From the NCBI GenBank assembly GCA_964567695.1, contig CAZMNQ010000003.1, forward strand, positions 1-37,776: 37,776 bases of DNA, in the 5' to 3' direction. Shown piece after piece: positions 1,500 to 37,494 of the stretch. Every line of letters begins with the position of its first letter. The first letter of the stretch is position 1. Under the pieces are notes generated by a model. The model was given only the letters and a program-made list of their open reading frames with translations. It was not told the DNA's origin and did no database searches. The DNA comes from an uncultured Bdellovibrionales bacterium (lineage in GTDB: Bacteria; Patescibacteriota; Minisyncoccia; Moranbacterales; UBA2206). A program made the position numbers and the translations under genes.

Positions 1500-4124
1500 A
1501 TGCGAGAAATTTCCAAACAATTTGATTTCAAAGAGAGGGAAGGGAAAATTTACGCGCTTTGGGAGAAGAGTGGGTTTTTTAATCCGGATAATATAAAATC
1601 TTCTAACCTGCCTGCCGGTAGGCAAGGAAAATATTGCAATGTTTTGCCGCCACCGAATGCCAATGGCGAATTGCATATCGGCCACGCCAGCGGTTATGCG
1701 GTGATGGATATTTTCGGCCGTTTCGAACGGATGGGTGGCAAAAAAGTTTTGCTTTTGCCAGGCAAAGATCATGCCGGCATCCAGACGCAAGTTGTTTTTG
1801 AGCGAAAAATAAAAGAAGAGCAAGGGATAATTCGCCAAGAAATGGGCCGGGGAAAATTTTACGCGGCTTGTTATGATTTTTGCATGGATCGCTCGAACTA
1901 TATGCGCTCGCAGGAAAAGAAAATCGGTATCAGCGCGGATTGGTCGCGGGAAAAATTTACACTGGATCCGGACGGATTGAAAATCGCGCTGGAGACTTTT
2001 GTAAAAATGTATAAAGATGGTTTGGTATATAAGGGTAATCGGATTATCAATTGGTGTTCGCGTTGCGCGACAGCTTTGAGTGATGTTGAGGTGGAGCACA
2101 AAGAAAGAGAGGGAAAATTATATTATATCAAATATCCAATCAAAGATTCCAAGGAATTCATTGTGGTGGCGACAACTCGTCCGGAAACAATGTTGGGAGA
2201 CTCTGCTGTGGCAGTTAATCCAAAAGACAAGAGATTCTTGGGTTTTATCGGCCAGAACTTGATTTTGCCATTGCAAAACAGGGAAATTCCCGTGATTGCC
2301 GATCGGCGAATTGATATGAAATTTGGAACCGGTGCGGTGAAGATTACGCCGGCGCATGATCCATTGGACTGGCAAATTGGCAAGGATCATAAATTGGAAG
2401 AAATTTTTGTCATTGATGAAAAAGCTAAAATTACGGAAGCCGGCGGTGAATATGTCGGTCTGGATGTTTTGGAGGCCAGAGAAAAAATTGTAGCCGATTT
2501 GCAAGGGCTGGGATTTTTGGAAAAAGAAGAATCTTTGACTAATGCTGTTTCTGTTTGTGAAAGATGTAAGACTATAATTGAGCCGTTGATTTCAAACCAA
2601 TGGTTTGTGTCGGTGGACTCGGAAAAATATTCCTTTAAGAAAAAAACTTTAGAGATGATCAAGTCCGGCAAGGTTGAGATTTATCCGGAAAATTTCAAAA
2701 AAATTCTCATCCATTGGTTAAATAATTTGCAGGATTGGTGTATTTCACGACAAATATGGTGGGGACCGCAGTTTCCAGTGTGGTATCGTGGCGAAGAGAT
2801 TTATGTCGGACTGGAAAAACCCAAAGGCAAGGATTCCGACTCCGCCAAGGCTACGACGGGCAAGTGGATTCAGGACGAAAATACTTTGGACACTTGGTTT
2901 TCTTCAAGTCAGTGGCCATATACAGCACTGGGTTATCCCAACGGAAAAGACTGTAAAAACTTTTATCCAACCGACGCTATGATTACGGGTCGTGATTTGT
3001 TGTTCTTTTGGGCAGCAAGAATGTTGATGATGGGTGGTTATCGTACCGGGAAAGTTCCTTTCAAAAATCTATATTTTACTGGCTTAATTTTGGACAAGGA
3101 TGGGCATAAATTTTCCAAGTCGCGAGGCAATGGCATTGACCCGCTAGAAATCATTGAAAAATATGGCGCGGATGCACTGCGTTTGAGCTTAGTGATGGAT
3201 ATTGCGCCGGGACAAGACGCGCGGCTCTATGAGGAAAAAATTGAAAGCTTCCGCAATTTTGTGACCAAGCTGTGGAATATTTTCCGCTATTGCAAGCAAT
3301 CGGATGAAAATTTTGCTTTGGTGGAAAAAATAAGCAAAAAAGATTTGAAAACTTTGTCAGACAGATGGATTGTTTCTGAATTGGAAGAGGTGACAAAAAA
3401 AGTTACACAATGCATGAAAGACAAGCAGATTTCTTTGGCGCAGGACGCATTGCGCAAATTTACTTGGGATAGTTTCGCTGATTGGTTCGTTGAAATAAAT
3501 AAACTGGAAAAGAATACTAAGGTTTTGGGCTATGTTCTGGACAAAATTTTGAAACTTTGGCATCCGTTCACGCCTTTTGTGACAGAGGAAATTTATCAAA
3601 TTTTGAATAAGAGTGAAGATATTTTGATGATGGCTAAATGGCCGAAAAGTGAAAAGAAATTTATTGATGCCAAGGCGCAGGCTAATTTTGCCGATCTGCA
3701 AGAATTGATTGCAAAAATTCGAAATATTCGGGCGAGTTATCACATTAATCCAGCGGAGTTGATAGAGGCGTATGGCAAGCTTAAGACCGAAAAAGAAATC
3801 GTGGAAAAACTCGGTCGAGTTAAAATTGAAACTAAGATTGCCAAAGAGAAAATGACCCAAATTTCTACTCGCAAGAGATCATTGCAACTGAATATCTCCA
3901 AATCGATAGATGTGGAAAAAGAAATTATTGCTTCAGCCAAAGAAATTCAAAATTTGACACAACTTGTGGCCAAAAACGAAGGTATGTTGAAAAACAAACA
4001 GTTTGTGGCTGGAGCGCCCAAGGAAATTATTGAGGCAACAAAGACAAGATTAGAAGAATATAAGGAAAAATTGGAGGTGCAAGCAGCGCTTAAGAATAGC
4101 CTAGAACAGCTTAAAAGAACTTAA
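1500..4124 (+). CDS. valS: Valyl-tRNA synthetase
   Basis: 874 aa. HIGH motif PPPNANGELHIGHA, KMSKS-type KFSKSRGN, DTWFSSSQWP and a C-terminal coiled coil. Carries a 21-nt palindromic insert near the N-terminus (1607-1627). Confidence 0.95.
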   Translation: MREISKQFDFKEREGKIYALWEKSGFFNPDNIKSSNLPAGRQGKYCNVLPPPNANGELHIGHASGYAVMDIFGRFERMGGKKVLLLPGKDHAGIQTQVVFERKIKEEQGIIRQEMGRGKFYAACYDFCMDRSNYMRSQEKKIGISADWSREKFTLDPDGLKIALETFVKMYKDGLVYKGNRIINWCSRCATALSDVEVEHKEREGKLYYIKYPIKDSKEFIVVATTRPETMLGDSAVAVNPKDKRFLGFIGQNLILPLQNREIPVIADRRIDMKFGTGAVKITPAHDPLDWQIGKDHKLEEIFVIDEKAKITEAGGEYVGLDVLEAREKIVADLQGLGFLEKEESLTNAVSVCERCKTIIEPLISNQWFVSVDSEKYSFKKKTLEMIKSGKVEIYPENFKKILIHWLNNLQDWCISRQIWWGPQFPVWYRGEEIYVGLEKPKGKDSDSAKATTGKWIQDENTLDTWFSSSQWPYTALGYPNGKDCKNFYPTDAMITGRDLLFFWAARMLMMGGYRTGKVPFKNLYFTGLILDKDGHKFSKSRGNGIDPLEIIEKYGADALRLSLVMDIAPGQDARLYEEKIESFRNFVTKLWNIFRYCKQSDENFALVEKISKKDLKTLSDRWIVSELEEVTKKVTQCMKDKQISLAQDALRKFTWDSFADWFVEINKLEKNTKVLGYVLDKILKLWHPFTPFVTEEIYQILNKSEDILMMAKWPKSEKKFIDAKAQANFADLQELIAKIRNIRASYHINPAELIEAYGKLKTEKEIVEKLGRVKIETKIAKEKMTQISTRKRSLQLNISKSIDVEKEIIASAKEIQNLTQLVAKNEGMLKNKQFVAGAPKEIIEATKTRLEEYKEKLEVQAALKNSLEQLKRT
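1607..1627. repeat. Family P1 palindromic core, degenerate copy, in frame inside valS
   Basis: CCTGCCTGCCGGTAGGCAAGG differs at 2 positions from the P1 consensus CCTGCCTGCCGGCAGGCAGG. It encodes LPAGRQG in the variable segment just before the HIGH motif. Confidence 0.7.
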
Positions 4125-4195: not shown

Positions 4196-5476
4196 ATGTC
4201 TAAGATAAAAAAGATTTTTGCCAGGGAGATTTTGGATTCACGGGGTAATCCGACAGTGGAAGTGGAAGTTGAATTGGAGTCGGGAATTAAAGCTGTGGCA
4301 GCGGTGCCGTCAGGCGCTTCGACTGGAATTTTTGAGGCTTTGGAATTGCGAGATGGCGATAAGAAAAGATTTAGTGGGTTGGGAGTTTTGCAAGCCGTGG
4401 AGAATGTGAATGAAAAAATCCAAAAAGTTGTGGTTGGTATGGAAGTGGAAGGTCAAATTGAAATTGATCAAAAAATGCTGGAATTGGATGGAACGGAAAA
4501 TAAAACTAATTTGGGAGCCAACGCAATTTTAGGTGTCTCACTGGCTGTTTGCCGCGCCGCGTCTGTTGAGGCTGGCATACCGTTGTATAAATATATTTCT
4601 AAGGCCTACAAACTACCTGCCTGCCGGACAGGCAGGAAAACCACGGGCTTTAAAATGCCCATTCCCATGTTTAATATCATCAATGGCGGCAAGCACAGTG
4701 ATTCAGGACTTTCAATTCAGGAATATAAGTTGGTACCCAATGGCATTAAATCGTTCAAGGAGCAATTCCGTGCTGGCAGTGAAATTTTTCATAAATTAAA
4801 AGATATCTTGGCTTCTGAGGGACAAAGCGTGGCTGTGGGTGATGAAGGTGGTTTTGCGCCTCGCCTGGAAAGCAACTCCAAACCCTTGGAACTGATTAAT
4901 CGTGCTATAGAAGAAGCCGGTTATAAAAAAGGAAAGGAAGTCAGTACGGCGATAGATGCGGCGGCTTCATCTTTTTTTGACGAAAAAGAAGGACAATATA
5001 TTTTCAAACCGGAAAGCAACGGCATCACTCGTGAAATGTTGGTGAATATTTATAGCGAATGGATAAATAAATATAATGTAATGTCAGTTGAGGACGGTTT
5101 GAATGAGCAAGATTGGGAAGGCTGGCGCGCGATGGAAGAAAAAATTGGAAAGACGGTGATGACAATTGGCGATGATCTCTTGGTGACCAATGTAAAAAGA
5201 TTGGAAATAGCGATCAAAGAAAAAGCGTGCAATTCTGTTTTGATCAAGGTTAATCAGATCGGCACCCTAACAGAAACGATGGCGTGCATAAAATTGGCCA
5301 AGAAAAATAAGATGCGAATCGTCATTTCGCATCGTTCAGGCGAAACCACTGATGACTTCATAGCCGACCTAGCCGTGGGCGTGCAAGCCGACTACATAAA
5401 ATCCGGCTCCCTTTCCCGAGGCGAGCGAATTTGTAAATATAATCGCTTGTTGAGGATTGAGGAAGAAATAAAATAG
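4196..5476 (+). CDS. eno: Enolase (phosphopyruvate hydratase)
   Basis: MSKIKKIFAREILDSRGNPTVEVEV..., SGASTG, NIINGGKH, IKVNQIGTLTET and SHRSGETTD are textbook enolase motifs. Carries a 21-nt palindromic insert (4616-4636). Confidence 0.95.
   Translation: MSKIKKIFAREILDSRGNPTVEVEVELESGIKAVAAVPSGASTGIFEALELRDGDKKRFSGLGVLQAVENVNEKIQKVVVGMEVEGQIEIDQKMLELDGTENKTNLGANAILGVSLAVCRAASVEAGIPLYKYISKAYKLPACRTGRKTTGFKMPIPMFNIINGGKHSDSGLSIQEYKLVPNGIKSFKEQFRAGSEIFHKLKDILASEGQSVAVGDEGGFAPRLESNSKPLELINRAIEEAGYKKGKEVSTAIDAAASSFFDEKEGQYIFKPESNGITREMLVNIYSEWINKYNVMSVEDGLNEQDWEGWRAMEEKIGKTVMTIGDDLLVTNVKRLEIAIKEKACNSVLIKVNQIGTLTETMACIKLAKKNKMRIVISHRSGETTDDFIADLAVGVQADYIKSGSLSRGERICKYNRLLRIEEEIK
4616..4636. repeat. 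Family P1 palindromic core in frame inside eno
   Basis: CCTGCCTG-CCGGA-CAGGCAGG. It encodes PACRTGR, within the LPACRTGRK segment, in the loop preceding PIPMFNIINGGKH. Confidence 0.75.
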
Positions 5477-11336: not shown

Positions 11337-13487
11337 ATGTCTGATCTAAAAAAATTATTCAATCCGCAATCTATTGCCATTGTTGGCGCTTCGCAGGAGC
11401 GGGGCAAGGTTGGAAATGTGATTGCGAAAAATATTTTGGAGCTGGGTTATGCCGGCAAGGTTTTTTTGGTTAATCCGAAACACGAGAAGCTTTTTGAGAA
11501 AAAAAGCTATCGCAGTTTGACGGAAATCACGGACAAAGTTGATTTGGCAATCGTTGTTTTGCCGTCCAAGATTGTTGTGCCGATTATCCGAGAAGCATCG
11601 GAGCGAATAAACCTCTACACCAATTCTAAAAATTATAATGCTTTAAAAAATAAACTTGGTCTAACTGATATAAAAGAAAAAATTGGTGTGGGGGTGAAAA
11701 ATTTCGTGGTGGTTTCGGCTGGTTTTTCGGAAACAGATGAGGAGGGGAAAGCACGCGAAACAGAATTAAAAAAGTTGGCGCAAGAAAAGGGGCTCAACAT
11801 TCTCGGGCCCAATTGTCTGGGATTTATAATCCCCAAATTGAAATTGAATGCGTCTTTCGCGGGCGGCCTGCCAAAGGCCGGCAACATTTCTTTTGTTTCG
11901 CAATCGGGCGCCTTGGCGGTAGCGATTATGGACATTGCTAGAAAGGAAAACATAAAATTTTCCAATATAATTTCGGTCGGCAACAAGATGCAAGTGGATG
12001 AATCGGAAATTTTGGAATATTTGGCGCAAGACGGCGAAACAAAAGTTATTGGAATGTATTTGGAAGGTATTAAAAATGGACCAAAATTTATTGAAGTTGC
12101 TCAAAGAGTTTCTATGGTCAAGCCGATTGTAATCATCAAGGCTGGCAAAAATGAGAAAACACAAAAAGCTATTGCTTCCCACACTGGCGCTTTAGCTGGC
12201 AGTGCGGATATCATGGAGGCGGTTTTTCAGAAAACCGGAATTTTGCGGGCAGAAAACTTAGAAGATTTTTTTGCATTGATTGAATTTATTTCTGTGGCGA
12301 AGCCGCCGAAAAATAATCAAGTGGCGGTCATTACTAACGCCGGTGGACTGGGCGTTCTCACGGCCGACGCTTTCAATCAAAAAGAAATCCGACTGTTTGA
12401 TTTGAACGAAAAAACAAAAAAGGAGCTGCGTGAATTTTTGCCAGACGAATCTTCGGTAGAAAATCCCGTGGATCTTTTGGGTGATGCGATGGAAGATCGT
12501 TACGAAAAAGCTTTGCAGGTGTTAGACGCGGAAAAAGAAATTGGCTCAATCTTGTGTGTTTTGACATCGCAAGATCAAACGCCAGTGGGAAAGATTACGG
12601 ATAAGATAATTGAATTTAAAAATAAGACAGACAAATTGGTGGCTACGATTTTTATCGGCGGAGAAAGGGTGGAAAAATCAATCTCAAAATTGAGAGAAAA
12701 TGATGTTCCAAATTTTTTATTTCCAGATTTAGCAGTGAAGACAATCAATGCTTATTATAATTGGAGTGTAAATATGAGTTCGATACAAAATAAAGAATTG
12801 GCTATAAATATTGAGCGAAAAAATAAAGTCGCGGAGATTATTGCGGTGGCTAAAAAGGAAAAGCGCGGCGCCTTGTCTTTTCCGGAAGCTAGCAGAATTA
12901 TGGCGCTCTATGGCATAAAAACACCTAGTGTTATAAATATCGGAGCAAAGGATATTTTACCGAAGGAGATTGGATTTCCCGTAGTTATGAAAGTGGATAG
13001 TGATAAAGTTTTGCACAAAACTGATAAACAAGGCGTTATCTTGAACATTAAAAATCAGGCTGAGTTAGAAAAAGCGCATGCACAAATGCAAGCAAATTTT
13101 CCGGGAGAGAATTTAATCTTGCAACAGATGCGTTCGATTAAAACGGAATTAATTTTGGGAATTAAAAATGACAGCATCTTTGGTCCAATCGTAGTATATG
13201 GATTGGGTGGAATTTATACCGAGGTTTTTAAAATGGTGAATTTTTTGGTTCCACCACTTAATATCCAGGAAATTAAAAATTCTTTATTGCAAAGCAAAAT
13301 AAAGTTTTTGTTTGCGGAAACCAGGGGACAAAAGGCCTATAATGTTCAAGAATTGGCTGAAATCCTGCTGGGGCTGTCAAAATTAGCCCAAGAAGCACTG
13401 GAAATACAAGAGCTGGATATTAATCCATTACTTGTCTATAATGATAACAAGGAGGCAGTGGCCATTGATGTAAAAATAATAATTTAA
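11337..13487 (+). CDS. ADP-forming acetyl-CoA synthetase / NDP-forming acyl-CoA synthetase, fused alpha-beta
   Basis: LFNPQSIAIVGAS CoA-binding start, GPNCLGFI, SQSGAL and ASHTGALAGS (phosphohistidine loop), plus a C-terminal ATP-grasp part. Contains an IR-bounded insert at 11612-11694. Confidence 0.8.
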   Translation: MSDLKKLFNPQSIAIVGASQERGKVGNVIAKNILELGYAGKVFLVNPKHEKLFEKKSYRSLTEITDKVDLAIVVLPSKIVVPIIREASERINLYTNSKNYNALKNKLGLTDIKEKIGVGVKNFVVVSAGFSETDEEGKARETELKKLAQEKGLNILGPNCLGFIIPKLKLNASFAGGLPKAGNISFVSQSGALAVAIMDIARKENIKFSNIISVGNKMQVDESEILEYLAQDGETKVIGMYLEGIKNGPKFIEVAQRVSMVKPIVIIKAGKNEKTQKAIASHTGALAGSADIMEAVFQKTGILRAENLEDFFALIEFISVAKPPKNNQVAVITNAGGLGVLTADAFNQKEIRLFDLNEKTKKELREFLPDESSVENPVDLLGDAMEDRYEKALQVLDAEKEIGSILCVLTSQDQTPVGKITDKIIEFKNKTDKLVATIFIGGERVEKSISKLRENDVPNFLFPDLAVKTINAYYNWSVNMSSIQNKELAINIERKNKVAEIIAVAKKEKRGALSFPEASRIMALYGIKTPSVINIGAKDILPKEIGFPVVMKVDSDKVLHKTDKQGVILNIKNQAELEKAHAQMQANFPGENLILQQMRSIKTELILGIKNDSIFGPIVVYGLGGIYTEVFKMVNFLVPPLNIQEIKNSLLQSKIKFLFAETRGQKAYNVQELAEILLGLSKLAQEALEIQELDINPLLVYNDNKEAVAIDVKIII
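11612..11694 (+). repeat. 83-nt inverted-repeat-bounded element inside the acetyl-CoA synthetase CDS
   Basis: Arms CCTCTACACCAATT (11612-11625) and AATTGGTGTGGGGG (11681-11694). Nine Watson-Crick pairs extend to 14 with G-U pairs on the plus strand. It coincides with an extra peptide RINLYTNSKNYNALKNKLGLTDIKEKIGV between conserved blocks. Confidence 0.6.
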
Positions 13488-26494: not shown

Positions 26495-27208
26495 GTGAAA
26501 TTTGATATAATTACAATTTTTCCTGAGATATTTGACTCCTATTTTTCCGAGTCGATTATTAAGCGCGCGCAAGGCGCTGGTTTTGTAGATATAAATATTA
26601 TTAATTTGCGTGACTACACGACAGATAGTCATAAGACTGTTGACGACACGCCCTATGGCGGAGGAGCGGGTATGGTTATGAAAGTTGAACCGATATATCG
26701 AGCTGTTGGCTCGATAATTTCCAATTTCCTCCGCCGCGGCGGACCAATTTCCAATGAATTTTCAAATTCAAATTCCAAAATTTCTAAACCAGATAATGTA
26801 TGTATTATTTTATTTTCAGCTAAGGGGAAGCGCTATACACAGCAAGACGCAGTTAGATTATCTAAATATGAAAATATTATAATGATTTGCGGTCGCTATG
26901 AAGGCGTGGATGAAAGAGTGATTGAACACATCGCGGATGAAGAAATTTCCATCGGAGATTTTGTTTTAACGGGTGGTGAAATTCCGGCGATGGTGGTTGT
27001 GGATAGCATCACGCGTCTCATTCCGGGTGTTCTTGGCAATAGTGAATCAATTGTGGCAGAGTCCCACAGTGAAGAACAATATTTGGAATATCCGCAATAC
27101 ACAAAACCGGAGTATTTTTCAGGTTGGAAAGTCCCTGAAGTGCTTTTGAGCGGCAATCATAAAAAAATTTCCGTTTGGCGCGAAGATAGTTCTAAATCAG
27201 TGAAATAA
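26495..27208 (+). CDS. trmD: tRNA (guanine37-N1)-methyltransferase
   Basis: GTG start. [53 protein letters not shown]. Carries an in-frame repeat element at 26715-26784. Confidence 0.9.
26715..26784 (+). repeat. Family P2 element (core TCCGCCGCGGCGGA at 26730-26743) in frame inside trmD
   Basis: AATTTCCAATTTCC-TCCGCCGCGGCGGA-CCAATTTCCAATGAATTTTCAAATTCAAATTCCAAAATTTC. The 9-mer CCAATTTCC directly flanks the core on both sides. Encodes [23 protein letters not shown]. Confidence 0.8.
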
Positions 27209-28332: not shown

Positions 28333-28392
28333 TTTACAATTATCAATGATCAATTTTCAATAAAGTTACAATAATCAATGTTCAATTTTTAT

Positions 28393-28469
28393 CTTGAAAA
28401 TTTAGTAATTGAAGATTGATTGTAAATTCCTGCCTGCCGGCAGGCAGGGAAAATTGTAAATTGAAAATT
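28393..28469 (+). repeat. Family P1 full-length element (core 28429-28448), intergenic between ftsW and murG
   Basis: CTTGAAAATTTAGTAATTGAAGATTGATTGTAAATT-CCTGCCTGCCGGCAGGCAGG-GAAAATTGTAAATTGAAAATT. Perfect 20-nt palindrome. The arms are homologous to the copy inside miaB. Confidence 0.8.
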
Positions 28470-28480
28470 AATATCAAATT

Positions 28481-29583: not shown

Positions 29584-29645
29584 ATTTAATTTCAAAAACC
29601 AAATTTCAAATTTCAAATCAACTTTAAAAAACAAATTTCAAACTA
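29584..29645 (+). repeat. AT-rich AATTTCA heptamer tract without a GC core (murG-murC intergenic)
   Basis: ATTTAATTTCAAAAACCAAATTTCAAATTTCAAATCAAC...CAAATTTCAAAC carries the same heptamer as the P2 flanks. Confidence 0.5.
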
Positions 29646-29652
29646 ACTATAA

Positions 29653-31086
29653 TTGAAAAATATGGATTTATCAAAAATTAAAAATGTCTATGTGATTGGC
29701 ATTAAGGGCTCGGGTATTGTGGGTATTGTGGAAATTCTCACAAAAATGGGCATATTTGTGAGCGGATCGGATGTACCGGAGAAGTTTTTTACTGATGAAA
29801 TTTTGCAAAAATTAGATATAAAATATTTTGAGGAATTCTCAGAAAAAAATATTCCGGAAAATGTTGATTTAATTTTATATTCAACCGCCTATAACGCGGA
29901 GAATAATATTGAATTTAATGCGGCTAAAGAAAGAGATGTGTTGATGATGAGTTATCCGGAAATTTTAGGGGAACTTTTTAATCAAAAATATGGCATTGCG
30001 GTTTGTGGAACACATGGCAAAACTACAACTTCTGCCATGATGGCCTTTGTTTTGCAGGCAGTGGGCGTTTCTCCGACCGCGGTCATTGGTAGCCGCGTCA
30101 AACAGTGGGGTGGCAATGCTCTAGTTGGCACAGGAGAATATTTTGTTATTGAAGCGGATGAATATCAAAATAAATTAAGACTATATGAGCCAAAAGGAGT
30201 AATTCTTACAAGTGTGGATTGGGACCATCCAGACACATATCCAACTCTTAATGAATATAAAAAAGCTTTTACAGATTTTGTGGCTAAAATTCCCAAAACT
30301 GGTTTTCTAGTCGTTTGGGGAGATAGTATTGATACAAATGAAATTGCTAAGTATTGTACTGCTAAAGTAATTAAATATGGATTTGGAGAGGATAATGATG
30401 TTGTAATTTCAAATTTCAAATTTCATCCGCCGCGGCGGACAAATCAAAATCAAATGTCAAATGATCAAAATGATGAATTAAAATATCAGAGTTTTGATGT
30501 TATGTATAAAAAAGAGAATCTGGGTAGTTTTCAAATTAAACTTATTGGAAAACATAATGTTTTGAATGCTGGAGCGGTAATTGCAGTGTGTCACAAGTTG
30601 AATTTGGATATGGAAAAGGTGCGTGAAGCATTGAAGGATTTTTCCGGAACTTCAAGGCGCTTTGAAATGATTGGGCAGAGGAATGGCGCTATTTTAATTG
30701 ATGATTATGGCCATCATCCGGAAGAAATCAAAGCTACGCTGAAAGCGACTAGAGAAATTTATCCGGACAAAAATATTATTGCAGTCTTTCATCCGCATTC
30801 CTATTCACGAACCGAAGCCTTGTTACAAGATTTTGCGCAAAGTTTTGATGACGCGGACCGTGTGATTGTGCTGGACATCTATGGTAGCGCCCGGGAAAAC
30901 ACAGGCAATGTTTCTTCTGAGGATCTAGTAAAATTGATTAACAAATATAATCGCGGCAAAGCTGAATATATTGCAACCATTGATGGAGCCGTAGAATCCT
31001 TGCAAGATAAAATCAGCGACACGGATATTGTTCTGGCGATTGGCGCCGGCAATGTTTTTGAGGTGGTGAAAAAATTAAAATTTTAA
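29653..31086 (+). CDS. murC: UDP-N-acetylmuramate--L-alanine ligase
   Basis: GIKGSGI..., VSGSD, VCGTHGKTTTSAM, EADEYQ, GKHNVLNA, IDDYGHHPEEI. The ORF track starts at TTG 29653; ATG at 29662 is an equally plausible start. In-frame repeat element at 30404-30470. Confidence 0.9.
   Translation: MKNMDLSKIKNVYVIGIKGSGIVGIVEILTKMGIFVSGSDVPEKFFTDEILQKLDIKYFEEFSEKNIPENVDLILYSTAYNAENNIEFNAAKERDVLMMSYPEILGELFNQKYGIAVCGTHGKTTTSAMMAFVLQAVGVSPTAVIGSRVKQWGGNALVGTGEYFVIEADEYQNKLRLYEPKGVILTSVDWDHPDTYPTLNEYKKAFTDFVAKIPKTGFLVVWGDSIDTNEIAKYCTAKVIKYGFGEDNDVVISNFKFHPPRRTNQNQMSNDQNDELKYQSFDVMYKKENLGSFQIKLIGKHNVLNAGAVIAVCHKLNLDMEKVREALKDFSGTSRRFEMIGQRNGAILIDDYGHHPEEIKATLKATREIYPDKNIIAVFHPHSYSRTEALLQDFAQSFDDADRVIVLDIYGSARENTGNVSSEDLVKLINKYNRGKAEYIATIDGAVESLQDKISDTDIVLAIGAGNVFEVVKKLKF
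30404..30470 (+). repeat. Family P2 element (core 30426-30439) in frame inside murC
   Basis: TAATTTCAAATTTCAAATTTCA-TCCGCCGCGGCGGA-CAAATCAAAATCAAATGTCAAATGATCAAAA. Encodes SNFKFHPPRRTNQNQMSNDQ, a different reading frame from the trmD and miaA copies. Confidence 0.8.
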
Positions 31087-31090
31087 ATTT

Positions 31091-32023
31091 ATGTTAAATA
31101 TTCAAAAAAATATAAATATAGCTCCCTACACAACTTTCAAAATCGGCGGACCAGCGAAATATTTTGCAGAGGTTAATTCGGAGGAAGATATTTTTGAGGC
31201 GCTGAGATATGCCAAGGATAATGGCCTGCAATTTTTTATATTGGGTGGCGGTAGCAATATTTTGGTGAATGACAAAGGCTTTGACGGGTTGATTATAAAA
31301 ATGAAATTAGATGATCTCAAGATGGATGTGTCTCGGGGCATAATCGAAATCGGGGCAGGGGTGATTCTGGCGAAAATAGTGAAAAATTCCACTGCCGAGG
31401 GATTGACGGGCCTAGAATGGGCTTCCGGCATCCCTGGGACGGTTGGCGGAGCATTGAGGGGCAATGCGAGAGCTTTTGGACGCAATATCGGTATGTCAGT
31501 CGAAACTATTGAGGCACTAGATATTACGACCCTAGAAAGAACCACTTATAATAATTCCGAGTGTGAATTTGCCTATTGGGGTAGTATGTTTAAAAAAAAT
31601 CCCAACCTGATTATTTTGTCCGCTAAGATTAAGCTGGAAAAAGGTGACGCGGAAAAAAGTCAACAAGAGGCCAGGAATATTATAGTCAAAAGAATGGCTA
31701 TACATCCGACAGGCAGCAGCGCAGGTTCATTTTTTCTAAATCCAGTGGTGTTTGATGAAAAATTGCGGGAGAGATTTGAAAAGGATTCCGGAACAGCCTG
31801 TCGAGACAACAAAATTCCTGCTGGCTGGCTAATAGACGAAGTTGGACTGCGCGGTAAAAAAATAGGCGGAATTCAAGTGAGCGAAAAACATGCGAACTTT
31901 GTAATAAATATTGGGGGCGGAACAGCCGAGGAGGTTGTGATGCTGACAAGCTTTGTTAAACAGCAAGTGCGTGATAAACTAGGGATTGAGTTGCAAGAAG
32001 AAATTCAATTTGTAGGGTTCTGA
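31091..32023 (+). CDS. murB: UDP-N-acetylenolpyruvoylglucosamine reductase
   Basis: YTTFKIGGPAKYF, ILGGGSNILV, GIPGTVGGA, GSFFLNP, AGWLID..GLRG...G...VS.KHANF. Confidence 0.9.
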   Translation: MLNIQKNINIAPYTTFKIGGPAKYFAEVNSEEDIFEALRYAKDNGLQFFILGGGSNILVNDKGFDGLIIKMKLDDLKMDVSRGIIEIGAGVILAKIVKNSTAEGLTGLEWASGIPGTVGGALRGNARAFGRNIGMSVETIEALDITTLERTTYNNSECEFAYWGSMFKKNPNLIILSAKIKLEKGDAEKSQQEARNIIVKRMAIHPTGSSAGSFFLNPVVFDEKLRERFEKDSGTACRDNKIPAGWLIDEVGLRGKKIGGIQVSEKHANFVINIGGGTAEEVVMLTSFVKQQVRDKLGIELQEEIQFVGF

Positions 32024-32182
32024 GAGCCTGTTCATAATCTCCGTATTCTGCTGCGAAATTGAAATTCCGGCTGCAAATTGTTCAAAATTCGTCGAAATAT
32101 CCAGATATTCCTCCTCATTTTTCACAATTTTCGCTCGAAATTTCAATCTCTCGCGACGAAAGAGAGATTATGAGCAGGCTCT
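32023..32182 (+). repeat. 160-nt MITE-like or structured-RNA element with 19-nt terminal inverted repeats
   Basis: AGAGCCTGTTCATAATCTC (32023-32041) and GAGATTATGAGCAGGCTCT (32164-32182) pair at 18 of 19 Watson-Crick positions, plus one T-G (plus-strand G-U). It starts at the last base of the murB TGA stop. Internal sub-hairpins are present. Confidence 0.65.
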
Positions 32183-33481: not shown

Positions 33482-34957
33482 ATGACAAAATACATTCCCG
33501 TCATTGGCATGGAAATCCATGTTGAACTGAAGACTAAATCAAAAATGTTTTGTAGTTGCAAAAATGGTTTGGGCATGGAGAAGGAACCTAATGTAAACAT
33601 TTGTCCGGTTTGTACGGCGCAACCGGGGACTTTGCCGGTGGCTAACAAACAGGCAATTGAGTTTGTGCAAAGAGCGGGCTTGGCGTTGAATTGTCAAATT
33701 GCTGAAAATTCCAAGTTTGATCGTAAAAACTATTTTTATCCGGATATCCCGAAAGGCTACCAGATTTCACAATATGATCAACCACTTTGCGAACACGGGA
33801 ATATCAAAATTGACGGTAAGAATGTGGGCATCACGCGCATTCACATGGAGGAAGACACGGGCAAATTAGTGCATCCGAAAGGCGCTGACCATTCCTTGAT
33901 CGATTTTAATCGTGCGGGTGTGCCTTTGATGGAATTGGTGACTGAGCCGGACATTGAGAGTGGCAAAGAGGCGCGGTTGTTTTGTCAGAAATTGCAGCAG
34001 ATTTTCCGTTATTTGGAAATTTCCGAAGCGGACATGGAAAAAGGGCATATGCGCTGTGAAGTCAACATTTCTCTGCACAAAGAAGGTGAGGAAAAGTTGA
34101 GTGGCACCAAAGCGGAAATTAAAAATCTGAATTCTTTTCGTGTGGTGGAAAAAGCGGTGGATTATGAGATTGTGCGCCAGACAGAAATTTTGGAGAAAGG
34201 TGAAAAAGTGGTGCAAGAAACCATGGGCTGGGATGAAGCGCATGGCATCACGGTGACGCAAAGAAAAAAAGAATCCGCGCATGACTATCGCTATTTTCCG
34301 GAACCGGACATTCCGCCGATGAAATTTACGCAGGATCATGTGGAAAATTTACGCCGACATTTGCCGGAGCTTCCAGATGCTAAATCTGCACGGTTTATGG
34401 AAGAATATGGTTTGTCTCCAGAAAATGTCAGCGTGATAACTGGCGAGCGGGATTTGGCTGAATATTTTGAGCAAGTTATTTCCGAACTGAAAGAAAAAAA
34501 ACAAAGCGGCGAGGTGGTTGCGGCCGAAGAAAAATTGGTCAAACTAGCGGCGAATTATATGGCGAGTGAATTGCAAAAACATTTTGTTAAAAATTTCCAG
34601 ACCATCAAGGATGTGAAAATCAGCGCGGAAAATTATGCTGAACTGATTGGCATTTTGGCTGATGGAAAAATAAATTCCAGCGCGGGTCAATTGGTCTTGA
34701 AAGAAATGTATGCCACGGGCGGCGATCCATCACAAATTATCGAAAGTAAAAATTTGGCGCAGATGAGTGATTCATCAGAATTGGAAAAAATTGTGGATGA
34801 AGTTATGTCCAAAAATCAAAAATCAGTAGCGGACTTTCACGCCGGCAAGGATAATGCTTTGCAATTTTTGATAGGACAAGTTATGGCTGCTTCAAAAGGC
34901 AAGGCGAATCCTAAAGTAGTAACCGATTTATTAAAAAGTAAATTAGAGAGTAGTTAG
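33482..34957 (+). CDS. gatB: Asp-tRNA(Asn)/Glu-tRNA(Gln) amidotransferase subunit B
   Basis: IGMEIHVELKTKSKMFCSC, CPVC.AQPGTLPV, MEEDTGK, DFNRAGVPLMELVTEPD, plus a C-terminal GatB/YqeY domain. Confidence 0.9.
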   Translation: MTKYIPVIGMEIHVELKTKSKMFCSCKNGLGMEKEPNVNICPVCTAQPGTLPVANKQAIEFVQRAGLALNCQIAENSKFDRKNYFYPDIPKGYQISQYDQPLCEHGNIKIDGKNVGITRIHMEEDTGKLVHPKGADHSLIDFNRAGVPLMELVTEPDIESGKEARLFCQKLQQIFRYLEISEADMEKGHMRCEVNISLHKEGEEKLSGTKAEIKNLNSFRVVEKAVDYEIVRQTEILEKGEKVVQETMGWDEAHGITVTQRKKESAHDYRYFPEPDIPPMKFTQDHVENLRRHLPELPDAKSARFMEEYGLSPENVSVITGERDLAEYFEQVISELKEKKQSGEVVAAEEKLVKLAANYMASELQKHFVKNFQTIKDVKISAENYAELIGILADGKINSSAGQLVLKEMYATGGDPSQIIESKNLAQMSDSSELEKIVDEVMSKNQKSVADFHAGKDNALQFLIGQVMAASKGKANPKVVTDLLKSKLESS

Positions 34958-35949
34958 TTTTTTATAAAAACTGAAACTTCTTTCTCCATATCCTTGTATT
35001 TTTTCAACCACTTTATGCGATGGTCTTTTTGAAACCAGGTCATTTGCCGTTTAGCATAGTCTTTTTCGGCTAAATAGACTCGTTCGTATAATTCTTCAAG
35101 AGTTATTTTTTCTTGCAGATATTCCGGTATCCAAAAATAGCCCAGTCCGAAGCTTTGAATTTTTTGAAAACTTAAGCCGGATTTTTTCAGTTTTTGTACC
35201 TCAGAAATCATGCCGGCCTGCCAGCGCGTATCGAGGCGTTTTTTGATTTTAGCGTGCAGTTTTTCTTTGGGAACGGAAATGCCGATTTGGAGAAACTCGT
35301 AACTCGTAACTTGTAATCCGTAACTCATGTCGGGAACTTTACCTAAAGTTTTGCAAATTTCAATGGCGCGAATGAGGCGCACTTTGTTTTTGGCATCGAT
35401 GTTTTCAGCGCGTCTAGGATCTAGTTTTTTTAATTCATGAATTAATTCAGTAATTTCTTTTTGCTCAAGTTTCTTGCGTAATTTCCAATCCGGCTTGACT
35501 TCTGGATAGGTTATATTATCCACAGCAGCTTTTATCCAAAAGCCGGTACCGCCACACAAGATGGGCAACTTTCCGCGTCTCAGAATGTCTTTAATAATTT
35601 TGTCTGCTTTCTTTTTAAATTGTGCTGCGCTGAAATTGGTTTTAGGACTGACAATGTCCAGCATATGATGCACGACGCCTTCGGAAATAAAAGGTTTTAT
35701 TTTTTTAAATTTAGTATTTTGAATTTGATTTGAAATTTGTCCGCCGCGGCGGATGAAATTTGAAATTTTATCTTGTGTCACTTTGCCCGTACCAACATCC
35801 ATGCCACGATAAATCTGGCGTGAATCAACCGAAACAACTTCGCCATCGAATTTCTGGGCAAGTTTAATCGCCACCGCTGATTTTCCAGCCGATGTAGGAC
35901 CTAATATCACGATAATTTTATTCAGTGGTAATTTATTGTATTTTGTCAT
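34954..35949 (-). CDS. miaA: tRNA dimethylallyltransferase
   Basis: ILGPTSAGKSAVAIKLA P-loop, SVDSRQIYRGMDVGTGK, HHMLDI, ILCGGTGFW, RLIRAIEI. Contains an in-frame repeat element at 35707-35769 and a heptamer microsatellite at 35296-35326. Confidence 0.9.
   Translation of the reverse strand: MTKYNKLPLNKIIVILGPTSAGKSAVAIKLAQKFDGEVVSVDSRQIYRGMDVGTGKVTQDKISNFIRRGGQISNQIQNTKFKKIKPFISEGVVHHMLDIVSPKTNFSAAQFKKKADKIIKDILRRGKLPILCGGTGFWIKAAVDNITYPEVKPDWKLRKKLEQKEITELIHELKKLDPRRAENIDAKNKVRLIRAIEICKTLGKVPDMSYGLQVTSYEFLQIGISVPKEKLHAKIKKRLDTRWQAGMISEVQKLKKSGLSFQKIQSFGLGYFWIPEYLQEKITLEELYERVYLAEKDYAKRQMTWFQKDHRIKWLKKYKDMEKEVSVFIKN
35296..35326. repeat. Heptamer microsatellite inside miaA
   Basis: CTCGTAA CTCGTAA CTTGTAA TCCGTAA CTC on the plus strand. 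Encodes YGLQVTSYEF on the coding (minus) strand. Confidence 0.6.
35707..35769 (-). repeat. Family P2 element (core 35740-35753) in frame inside miaA
   Basis: Coding strand reads AAAATTTCAAATTTCA-TCCGCCGCGGCGGA-CAAATTTCAAATCAAATTCAAAATACT. The 9-mer CAAATTTCA flanks the core on both sides. Encodes KISNFIRRGGQISNQIQNT. Confidence 0.8.
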
Positions 35950-36042: not shown

Positions 36043-37494
36043 TTAAACGATTTCTCCTTCCAAATTCCAAATGCTAACTTTAGTAATTTTAACTTTTATA
36101 ATCTTGCCAATCAGAGATCCCTCGACAAGTTCGGGATGACAATCGTTACTGATTGTCATTTTGACATTTTTTCCGGTGCGGGTTTTGCCGAAATAAATAT
36201 GGTGCTTTCCTAGAGCTAAGCTCTTGGAATCCAAGAGCTTAGCTCTAGGAGAACTTTCCTTTTCGATCAGGATTTCGACAGTCGTGTTGAGGAATTTTTT
36301 GCTATTTTTCAGCGCGGTCTTTTTCAGGATTTCATTTAAAAATTGTTCGCGACGGGCTTTTTCGGTTTTGGAAACTGAGTCTTTCATATTCCAAGCCGGT
36401 GTGCCGGGGCGGGGGGAAAATTGGCCAAAGAAAACCATGTCGTAACCGACTTTTTCCATGATTTCCGCAGAGTCTAAAAATTGTTTTTTGGTTTCACTTG
36501 GGAAGCCGACAATGATATCGGAAGTGATGACGGCTGGCACGCCCGATTTATTTTTTTTGAAAGCGGCTTGAATTTTTTTAACTAAAATCAAATATTCTTG
36601 CGCGGTGTATTTGCGATTCATTTTTCTGAGGACTTCATCATTGCCAGCTTGGATGGGCAGATGAAAAGCTTCGCAAACTTTTTTGCATTTCGTTACTGTT
36701 TCAATCATTTCTGGCGACACATCTTTCGGGTGATTGCTGACAAAGCGAATCCAAAATTTTCCCGGGATGGCGTTGACTTTTTTTACGAGCTTAGAAAAAT
36801 TTATTTTGCCATCCGAGTATGAATTAACATTTTGTCCAAGCAAAGTTATTTCTTTGTAGCCTTTTTTCACTAGATTTTTTACTTCATAAATTATTTCTTC
36901 CGCCGGTCTGGAAACTTCCCGTCCACGAGCATAGGGCACGACGCAGTAGGCGCAGAAATTGTTGCAGCCGGTCATAATCGGCACAAAAGCTTGATATGCA
37001 TTTGTAAGTTTTGGTTTAATGGATAGATAAGAGATATTTTCTTTGCTTAGTTCGATATTTTTTTGTGCCGAAATTTTCAATTTACAATTTACAACCTTGC
37101 CTGCCGGCAGGCAGGTTTTCAATGAATTTTCAATGATAAAATTTTCAAACAGCTCAAAATTGTTAATAGGGGAAAATAAATCAACTTTATTTTTTAGTCT
37201 TCTTTGCACATCTTTGCGGTTGGCGAGACAACCAGTTAAAACAATCTTGATTTTTGGATTAGCCTTTTTGAGATTATGAACTTGTCCATAGACCCGATCT
37301 TCGGCCATTTGGCGCACCCCACAGGTGTTGAAAATGACCAAACCTGCCTTCGCTAAGGCTTCGGCAGGCAAGTCAGCATTTTCGTTCCTAGTAAGTGGTT
37401 CTAGTCCTTGTGATTCCAGAAAACTGGCAATCCGCTCACTGTCTGAATGGTTCATCTGGCAACCAAAAGTTTTGATAGAGTATGTTTTATTCAT
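36043..37494 (-). CDS. miaB: tRNA-i6A37 methylthiotransferase (radical SAM MTTase)
   Basis: TFGCQMNHSDSE and FNTCGVR (N-terminal cluster), GCNNFCAYCVVPYARGRE (radical SAM CxxxCxxC), C-terminal TRAM domain. Contains at least three palindromic in-frame inserts. Confidence 0.9.
   Translation of the reverse strand: MNKTYSIKTFGCQMNHSDSERIASFLESQGLEPLTRNENADLPAEALAKAGLVIFNTCGVRQMAEDRVYGQVHNLKKANPKIKIVLTGCLANRKDVQRRLKNKVDLFSPINNFELFENFIIENSLKTCLPAGKVVNCKLKISAQKNIELSKENISYLSIKPKLTNAYQAFVPIMTGCNNFCAYCVVPYARGREVSRPAEEIIYEVKNLVKKGYKEITLLGQNVNSYSDGKINFSKLVKKVNAIPGKFWIRFVSNHPKDVSPEMIETVTKCKKVCEAFHLPIQAGNDEVLRKMNRKYTAQEYLILVKKIQAAFKKNKSGVPAVITSDIIVGFPSETKKQFLDSAEIMEKVGYDMVFFGQFSPRPGTPAWNMKDSVSKTEKARREQFLNEILKKTALKNSKKFLNTTVEILIEKESSPRAKLLDSKSLALGKHHIYFGKTRTGKNVKMTISNDCHPELVEGSLIGKIIKVKITKVSIWNLEGEIV
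36116..36159 (-). repeat. Hairpin-containing in-frame insert in the miaB TRAM domain
   Basis: ATGACAATC-GTTACT-GATTGTCAT hairpin at 36136-36159, next to CCCTCGACAAGTTCGGG. Encodes TISNDCHPELVEGS between conserved V.M and LIGKIIKVKI. Confidence 0.55.
36208..36250. repeat. Near-perfect 41-43-nt palindrome in frame inside miaB
   Basis: CCTAGAGCTAAGCTCTTGGA-A-TCCAAGAGCTTAGCTCTAGG: 20 of 20 pairs around a single central base, and each arm is itself palindromic (AGAGCTAAGCTCT). Encodes SPRAKLLDSKSLALG. Confidence 0.75.
37072..37149 (-). repeat. Family P1 full-length element (core 37095-37115), 78 nt, in frame inside miaB
   Basis: Minus strand reads TTTGAAAATTTTATCATTGAAAATTCATTGAAAA-CCTGCCTGCCGGCAAGG-TTGTAAATTGTAAATTGAAAATT. 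It shares ATTGTAAATTGAAAATT and the left arm with the intergenic copy at 28393-28469. Encodes FENFIIENSLKTCLPAGKVVNCKLKI. Confidence 0.8.

Follow-up and report, generated by a model that had tools for sequence, protein, structure and literature searches.

The complete contig CAZMNQ010000003.1 of an uncultured bacterium (assembly GCA_964567695.1), which is 37,776 bp long and is called the window below, contains ordinary housekeeping genes, has a G+C content of approximately 38% and is 92.5% coding. Named homologs of its MurC and MiaA proteins are labelled as Candidatus Moranbacteria, Moraniibacteriota, Parcubacteria group or Patescibacteria group. The murC gene, whose product is identical to the database protein P0001 (474 aa) and is matched by MurC homologs in PDB with E = 6e-79, contains a perfect 14-nt GC-rich palindrome, TCCGCCGCGGCGGA, lying between AT-rich repetitive arms; we call this palindrome the P2 core. 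The same core is found in two other genes of the window, trmD and miaA (Table 1). These three copies compare with 0.03 expected, and three or more copies were seen in none of 100 shuffles; no additional core was found in the window when up to two mismatches were tolerated.

All three copies are located inside open reading frames (ORFs) and are in the sense orientation relative to the host gene, as judged from their AAATTTC-type arms. Written in gene sense, they share the pattern AATTTC(A/C)AATTTC(A/C)-core-C(A/C)AAT. An earlier sequence-only reading of this DNA described the flank-core-flank string of murC as nearly identical to the miaA copy, and this description is accurate: 34 nt (AAATTTCAAATTTCA, the core and CAAAT) are identical between the two copies, and the identity over 51 nt is 84%. 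The miaA copy reads AAATTTC AAATTTC A-core-C AAATTTC AAATC on its sense (minus) strand; the right arm of the murC copy is repetitive with period 7–8 at positions 30449–30474 (Tandem Repeats Finder); and the arms of the trmD copy are the variants AATTTCC and CCAAT. Perfect direct repeats of 9 nt abut both sides of the core in trmD (CCAATTTCC) and in miaA (CAAATTTCA). Together with loci in Bacteroidota, where CAAATTTTCA stands on both sides of an identical core (see below), this shows that the left and right flanks of P2 covary by locus.

P2 in three reading frames

Judging from the coordinates, the P2 core begins with the third base of a codon in murC (HPPRRT) and with the second in trmD and miaA (RRGG), which bears out the earlier claim that the murC copy is read in a frame different from that of the other two. 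The murC copy is translated as VISNFKFHPPRRTNQNQ (in the shorter form, VISNFKFHPPRRTNQ) and the miaA copy as KISNFIRRGGQISNQ (in the shorter form, KISNFIRRGGQISN), the peptides encoded by the trmD and miaA copies both having the form ISNF-x-RRGG-x-ISN.

Copies outside the window were sought by pattern scans of public genomes and metagenomes, the genome contigs being scanned with TTTCNTCCGCCGCGGCGGAC. Among the matches listed for the genome contigs, most were GC-rich chance matches or belonged to a separate Terracidiphilus repeat, and approximately seven loci were useful. At least five further coding P2 loci were identified in other Moranbacteria-like contigs, with the host genes confirmed by Pfam (Table 1), and P2 copies are present in spacers of other contigs, too. 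The eight independent coding loci, in eight unrelated proteins, between them use each of the three sense frames, the core being translated as RRGG at two loci, as PPRR at three and as SAAAD at three. All eight copies are in sense orientation, and their distribution is not limited to one frame or one protein domain. As in murC, three AATTTCA heptads stand to the left of the core in contigs L128, L036 and L136. A variant core, TCCGCC-AGCT-GGCGGA, which is still palindromic, is present in murC of contig L143 and in secA of contig L144.

The identical P2 core, with the flanks described above, was also found in Bacteroidota contigs of the Sphingobacteriales/Chitinophagaceae type (L018, L088, L120, L121, L127, L133 and L138). 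In several of them the copy is situated approximately 20 nt upstream of the scpB start codon, has conserved AAATTTTC-type flanks and is always in sense relative to the adjacent gene. Contig L120 has two P2 copies in divergent orientation in a single spacer. There was no P2 match on the viral contigs scanned, and hence no support for a phage vector; neither was there a P2 copy in the 9.7 kb past the right end of the window.

The sense frames of the idealized element, (AATTTCA)3-core-(CAAATTT)n, are all free of stop codons, and every antisense frame is interrupted by at least one TGA. In the 33-mer shared by the copies one antisense frame is open, and none is open once the three heptads are included. 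Just 0.8% of the shuffles matched for composition have all three frames open. The sequence-only reading had suggested that the element is stop-free by design in the sense orientation; the stop-free property is genuine, but design is unnecessary to explain it. The arms are sense-oriented at all eight coding loci (P = 0.004 under random orientation), which also fits random insertion followed by the loss of stop-bearing copies (P = 0.10 under a 3:1 expectation). A survival filter that passes insertions with no stop codon and with a net length divisible by three already explains the eight sense copies. The coding location itself is not avoided: six of the seven copies of P2 and of its sister family P1 (described below) are coding in this 92.5% coding window.

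These observations support the view that P2 is a repeat at the DNA level, indifferent to the reading frame, rather than a protein motif. The earlier argument, that a sequence tolerated in two frames points to selection on a DNA or RNA element, or merely on the absence of stop codons, and not on a protein motif, is therefore correct as far as the protein is concerned, given the eight unrelated proteins, the three frames and the non-coding copies; on the other hand, the weak hairpin and the single-nucleotide polymorphisms (SNPs) on the core, both considered below, give no sign of selection keeping a DNA or RNA element.

Table 1. Location of P2 and P1 copies, their host genes and the associated repeats; positions refer to the window unless a contig is named.
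Feature	Location	Strand	Reading of the core	Basis or remark
murC (UDP-N-acetylmuramate--L-alanine ligase)	29653/29662–31086	+		Pfam Mur_ligase, Mur_ligase_M, Mur_ligase_C
murC copy, left arm: three perfect AATTTCA heptads	30405–30425	+		Tandem Repeats Finder: period 7, 3.0 copies, 100% matches
murC copy, P2 core TCCGCCGCGGCGGA	30426–30439	none (palindrome)	(H)PPRR(T)	sequence
murC copy, right arm: CAAAT, then CAAAAT/CAAATG-type repeats (NQNQMSNDQND)	30440–30474	+		sequence
trmD, second P2 host	26495–27208	+		Pfam tRNA_m1G_MT
trmD, 48-nt block: arm, P2 core (26730–26743), arm	26723–26770	+		DNA alignment with the ortholog in L140
miaA, third P2 host	34954–35949	-		Pfam IPPT and IPT
miaA copy, P2 core at 35740–35753	35718–35768	-	(I)RRGG(Q)	sequence
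Core-less AATTTCA heptad array, murG–murC spacer	29588–29618	+		Tandem Repeats Finder: period 7, 4.4 copies
murE-like Mur ligase	L128		PPRR (HPPRRT)	host verified by Pfam
lspA	L125 / L129 / L136		PPRR (HPPRRT)	host verified by Pfam
rsmH	L002		SAAAD (SSAAAD)	host verified by Pfam
uvrD/pcrA	L036		SAAAD (SSAAAD)	host verified by Pfam
GT4 glycosyltransferase	L124		SAAAD (SSAAAD)	host verified by Pfam
P1, CCTGCCTGCCGGCAGGCAGG, ftsW–murG spacer	28429–28448	none		period-7 AT-rich arms
P1 copy in valS	1605–1627 (approximate)		LPAGRQG	near the N-terminus, without arms
P1 copy in eno	4616–4636 (approximate)		LPACRTGRK	interdomain linker, without arms
P1 copy in miaB	37096–37115		CLPAGK	interdomain linker, with arms

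Insertion sites and host proteins

The murC site has different states in related contigs: a single heptad unit in L142 (GTA ATTTCAAAT AAAATCC); four AAATTTC units and no core in L140; and, in the window, three units followed by A-TCCGCCGCGGCGGA-C, a 16-mer extending from A30425 to C30440, which replaces the fourth unit. The right-arm stretch of the murC copy (30440–30474) is present in the core-less orthologs of L140 and L142 as well, and hence the right arm predates the core. At the miaA site, L151 has GAT G-AAATTTC x4-AAATC and no core, and the window has two units, the 16-mer in the place of the third one and one more unit. In both genes exactly one 7-nt unit corresponds to the 16-mer; since this 16-for-7 swap adds 9 nt, or three codons, the reading frame is kept. 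As the heptad repeat moves the codon phase by one per unit, the reading of the core, be it PPRR, RRGG or SAAAD, depends on which unit of the array is swapped. In trmD the whole 48-nt block is missing from L140, TrmD having 237 aa in the window and 222 aa in L140, and the local variant AATTTCC of the arms is already present at the empty site. The inserted P2 blocks thus range from 9 nt (net) to 48 nt.

In the window, AAATTTC arrays are found essentially only beside P2 cores, with one additional core-less array in the murG–murC spacer. Contig L148, from a 99.86%-identical strain, lacks one 7-nt unit of this spacer array (29600–29606), demonstrating that heptad arrays change by unit slippage at the strain level, and murC orthologs differ by three heptad units; the arrays are unstable. 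Of the 13 SNPs of L148, two affect the trmD core or the base following it (Poisson P = 1e-4). In TrmD, the variant P84S is seen in 5 of 14 cluster members; G70E, the only MiaA variant in its cluster, lies in the core and breaks the palindrome. These changes look like relaxed constraint, although hairpin-associated mutability may also play a part in them.

In the host proteins, the products of P2 are loop extensions that are predicted to be disordered. Alignment of MurC with PDB 6cau gives a 16-residue gap at KFHPPRRTNQNQMSND, and TrmD residues 73–99 and MiaA residues 62–89 are unaligned with PDB 3ky7 and PDB 3d3q, respectively. In the AlphaFold2 model of MurC (55 orthologs; mean predicted local distance difference test score, pLDDT, 87.6) the only segment with a score below 50 is 261–271, the tip of a beta-hairpin whose loop, 256–274, is encoded by the element.

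Among 120 MurC and 120 MiaA orthologs, P2 at these sites was found only in the window's own species. About a quarter of the MurC orthologs and 40% of the MiaA orthologs have no insert at the loop; many have heptad-coded peptides without a core (for example, SNFKFQISN and SNFQFPISN); and in still others the loop is occupied by GC-rich palindromes that differ from P2 (for example, FPPSRDPATAV, TLPTGRQV, SPPAGG and PEYSG). The MurC and MiaA loops are hot spots, and the P2 insertions in them are young.

Further cassettes were noted at these and other positions. MurC P0053 and MiaA P0228 from other Moranbacteria have another GC-rich cassette, PSPSGRGW..GPGEG or PSPARGRGWLEEPGEG, in the same hot-spot loops, where LQPKADPPMA is found in addition to the already mentioned FPPSRDPATAV and PEYSG. 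The murE-like gene of L128 has a second insertion (approximately 4000–4080) that consists of AT-rich heptads only (SPNFQFPISNFQTISNDQISND), with no GC core. ValRS P0157, in a cluster with at least 90% identity, has 14 additional residues (DKSKVESLKSKIEN) and, a few positions away, lacks 10 (SDSAKATTGK), an instance of loop turnover at the strain level that has nothing to do with P1 or P2.

Proposed nature and spread of P2

The reading that we consider likely, with a probability of about 0.8, is that P2 is a short DNA repeat, non-coding by origin and composed of a palindrome in AAATTTC arrays, which multiplies at the DNA level in Moranbacteria and survives in essential genes independently of the frame. 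It is best described as a selfish or neutral GC-palindrome cassette, which would persist inside essential genes because nothing in it depends on the reading frame. The heptad arrays could act as landing pads that provide homology on both sides of the core. The cassette would spread either by being copied non-reciprocally from one dispersed array to another, through gene conversion or template switching, or with the help of a trans-acting enzyme. Purifying selection would purge the copies that bring TGA stops, leading to the apparent sense-only orientation, and the P2 peptides would be neutral passengers. Array-to-array copying seems weakly preferable to a trans-acting enzyme, as the register-preserving 16-for-7 swap, the locus-specific arm variants kept in trmD and the existence of core-less arrays all fit it.

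Several observations weigh against this reading. There is no presence/absence polymorphism of P2 among strains or protein clusters with at least 90% identity, the length differences within such clusters being located elsewhere or arising from different start codons; we infer the mobility of P2 only from the comparison of orthologs, and the direction of the swap, core gain or core loss, likewise follows only from parsimony among them. Exactly three heptads stand to the left of the core at four loci in different genomes, which better fits an element carrying its own arm and suggests that the left arm is able to accompany the core. The homology of 14–21 nt per side is short for RecA-type conversion, and no mobilizing enzyme was found in the window, nor a transposase gene there or in the 9.7 kb that follow. 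The core and its flanks are conserved upstream of scpB, at one locus in Bacteroidota, a possible hint of a function. Finally, the census is small, eight coding loci.

A possible but rather improbable alternative is that P2 resembles repetitive extragenic palindromes (REPs) and is moved in trans, as single-stranded hairpins, by a REP-associated tyrosine transposase (RAYT) or an IS200-type Y1 (HUH) transposase, and not by recombination of arrays. Such systems do exist in the clade, as do REPs within ORFs: in the related Moranbacteria genome UBA2282 a 210-aa Y1_Tnp protein (L142 11521–12153) is encoded directly after murC. Its score against PF01797 is 38 bits (cut-off 23), and among the NCBIfam families it matches REP_Tyr_transpos best (63 bits, E = 2.5e-17); a palindrome with a GTAG tag is present around the gene in four copies, two of which lie within its ORF. 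However, the score of 63 bits is under the curated cut-off of 80; the palindrome associated with this gene, GTAGAGACGCGATTAATCGCGTCTC, is unrelated to P2, which has no GTAG or CGTC tag; no P2 is found in the 21.4 kb of L142 around the RAYT-like gene, and no Y1 or RAYT gene in the window; and movement by IS200/RAYT enzymes produces no target duplication, whereas P2 has flanking direct repeats of 9–10 nt. We regard it as less likely still that P2 is a selected cis-acting DNA or RNA signal, such as a translational pause, an mRNA-stability hairpin, a protein-binding or recombination site or an uptake sequence, with a functional role of its presence inside genes. The perfection of the palindrome, its preservation in the variant core of L143 and L144, and the retention of core and flanks in gene sense upstream of scpB would agree with such a signal. 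Uptake sequences of other bacteria also occur within genes, in all frames. Folded as RNA, however, the core gives a stem of 5 bp capped by a tetraloop (-8 kcal/mol), and comparison with shuffled sequences gives z = -0.7 in murC and z = -0.2 in trmD, no better than the shuffles, and z = -2.8 in miaA, where the gain comes from arm pairing; a structured RNA signal was dropped because the hairpin is no stabler than shuffles in murC or trmD. No match to Rfam was found in the window at the gathering threshold. An intrinsic terminator (a GC-rich hairpin followed by a T run) was rejected as well, since the terminator scan contained no P2 copy; of the P1 and P2 copies, only the P1 copy 37096–37115 is among its entries, on the strand antisense to miaB. 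Orthologous sites in relatives are without the core, and strain SNPs break the palindrome. DNA uptake sequences (of the uptake signal sequence, USS, and DNA uptake sequence, DUS, types) have a density of approximately one per kb and arise by substitution; the three P2 copies in 37.8 kb (approximately one per 12 kb) fall far below this density and are insertions relative to orthologs, not point-mutational convergences.

That the shared string is a conserved peptide module, i.e. a paralogous mini-domain under selection at the protein level, is very improbable. The common ISNF-x-RRGG-x-ISN form in TrmD and MiaA is what such a module would predict, but the same DNA is read as HPPRRT in three genes (murC, the murE-like gene and lspA) and as SSAAAD in three others (rsmH, uvrD and the GT4 gene); moreover, the P2 peptides are missing from orthologs, have low pLDDT and vary between strains, and non-coding copies exist. 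Perfect GC-rich palindromes can trouble polymerases and assemblers. Nevertheless, an origin of P2 from assembly or sequencing errors (a chimeric junction or an adapter-derived sequence) has a negligible probability: near-identical contigs (99.86–99.9%) in independent NCBI, ENA, JGI and Logan assemblies have the three identical copies at the same sites, which excludes an assembly artefact, and in all copies the long ORFs are preserved and real polymorphisms segregate within them.

Comparison of the selfish or neutral cassette with known repeats suggests that its closest functional analogs are yeast mitochondrial GC clusters and Rickettsia palindromic elements (RPEs), P2 being a member of neither. 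GC clusters are short, GC-rich palindromes that lie in AT-rich DNA between direct repeats, which are read as target duplications; descriptions of their target sites mention both single elements and tandem arrays, in-frame insertions are known in var1 and are mostly tolerated, and the clusters evolve fast and recombine (PMC8811140). P2 similarly is a GC-rich palindrome in AT-rich DNA with perfect repeats of 9–10 nt abutting the core (in trmD, miaA and Bacteroidota), and its target-like units are found singly (L142), as four core-less units (L140, L151) or as an array with the core (the window). Unlike P2, GC clusters are fungal mitochondrial, have AG or TAG flanking repeats and are typically 30–50 nt long, with loops. 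The host of P2 is a bacterium of the candidate phyla radiation; as there is no sequence similarity, homology is not implied and the analogy is functional only. RPEs were reportedly described by Ogata and coworkers in 2000 and 2002. They are selfish elements inserted in frame, at fold-compatible positions, in unrelated housekeeping genes of a small genome, and are also found in non-coding DNA (PMC10969869). P2, in a like manner, is in frame in trmD, murC, miaA, the murE-like gene, lspA, rsmH, uvrD and the GT4 gene and also has copies in spacers. RPEs, however, are approximately 100–150 bp long and palindromic lengthwise, whereas P2, unrelated in sequence and smaller by an order of magnitude, is palindromic only in the 14-nt core and measures 33–48 nt with the arms, which are direct repeats; furthermore, each RPE family encodes one conserved peptide in one frame, and P2 is read in three.

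The likeness to bacterial transposon-derived repeats is more limited. REPs are extragenic by definition and are imperfect palindromes of 20–40 nt with a GTAG or CGTC tag (PMC3733652). P2 resembles REPs and REPINs in being small, GC-rich, hairpin-forming and present in many copies, but neither GTAG nor CGTC is present in its flanks (TTTCA/TTTCC and CAAAT/CCAAT), it is mostly intragenic and it has flanking direct repeats; across the 37.8-kb window and the 9.7 kb past its right end there is no cognate RAYT gene flanked by P2. [quoted passage not shown] In contrast to P2, which has no internal sequence, MITEs are 50–500 bp long, have internal sequence between the terminal inverted repeats and derive from an identifiable insertion sequence; in the loci examined, there was no longer element with the half-sites TCCGCCG...CGGCGGA as terminal inverted repeats.

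A broader and only tentative proposal is that P2, P1 and the other loop palindromes might constitute an undescribed bacterial counterpart of the mitochondrial GC clusters: cassettes of 14–20 nt with no enzyme of their own, copied from array to array by a frame-preserving swap and parasitizing essential genes in 92% coding genomes. If so, the same flanks in Bacteroidota would mean that P2 crosses phylum boundaries. Heptad landing pads combined with the frame-preserving 16-for-7 swap apparently are an undescribed architecture, and a full-text literature search in a limited collection yielded no account of cassettes like these from members of the candidate phyla radiation. Few systems of selfish repeats within essential genes are known, mainly the RPEs and the mitochondrial GC clusters; a smaller, frame-independent version in the candidate phyla radiation would indicate that near-spacerless genomes still host repeat parasites, in protein loops. 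The frame independence follows from a simple rule, the 7-nt repeat visiting all codon phases and the swap amounting to exactly three codons. For annotation it matters that the cassettes enlarge and diversify loops of MurC, MiaA, TrmD, UvrD and SecA and appear in alignments as spurious "lineage-specific motifs"; work on metagenome-assembled genomes that analyses homology, structure or selection can be misled by them, too.

The P1 family and other repeats

The sister family P1 comprises CCTGCCTGCCGGCAGGCAGG and its near variants, and its frame also differs between host genes (Table 1). The arms in the ftsW–murG spacer and in miaB are AT-rich with period 7 (AATTTAC, GAAAATT) and are open in only one sense frame; miaB is the only gene in which P1 has arms. 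In uvrD of L036 a P1-like core comes immediately after the P2 core. The sole match on the viral contigs, to the P1 core with AT flanks, is at L146 758–781 (IMGVR_UViG_3300033145_001678). The ftsW–murG spacer (28333–28480), consisting of period-7 repeats and P1, has 148 nt in the window compared to 12 nt in UBA2282 (L142 8875–8886), which shows that repeats make up most of the scant intergenic DNA of this genome. In L142 the copies of GTAGAGACGCGATTAATCGCGTCTC are at 11409–11880, two of them upstream of the RAYT-like ORF and inverted and two within it, where they are translated as NCRDAINRVSTG.

Two further inverted repeats are present in the window. A 45-nt near-perfect palindrome with a 20-bp stem, TTCCTAGAGCTAAGCTCTTGG AATCC AAGAGCTTAGCTCTAGGA, is located at 36207–36251 in miaB, a gene of the minus strand, with the translation ...SSPRAKLLDSKSLALGK...; this palindrome may represent a further insertion that is different in kind and less rich in GC. 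The murB–hpf spacer (32023–32182) is mostly occupied by a 79-nt inverted repeat with 71% complementary arms separated by 2 nt, which could be a long hairpin or a MITE-like element.

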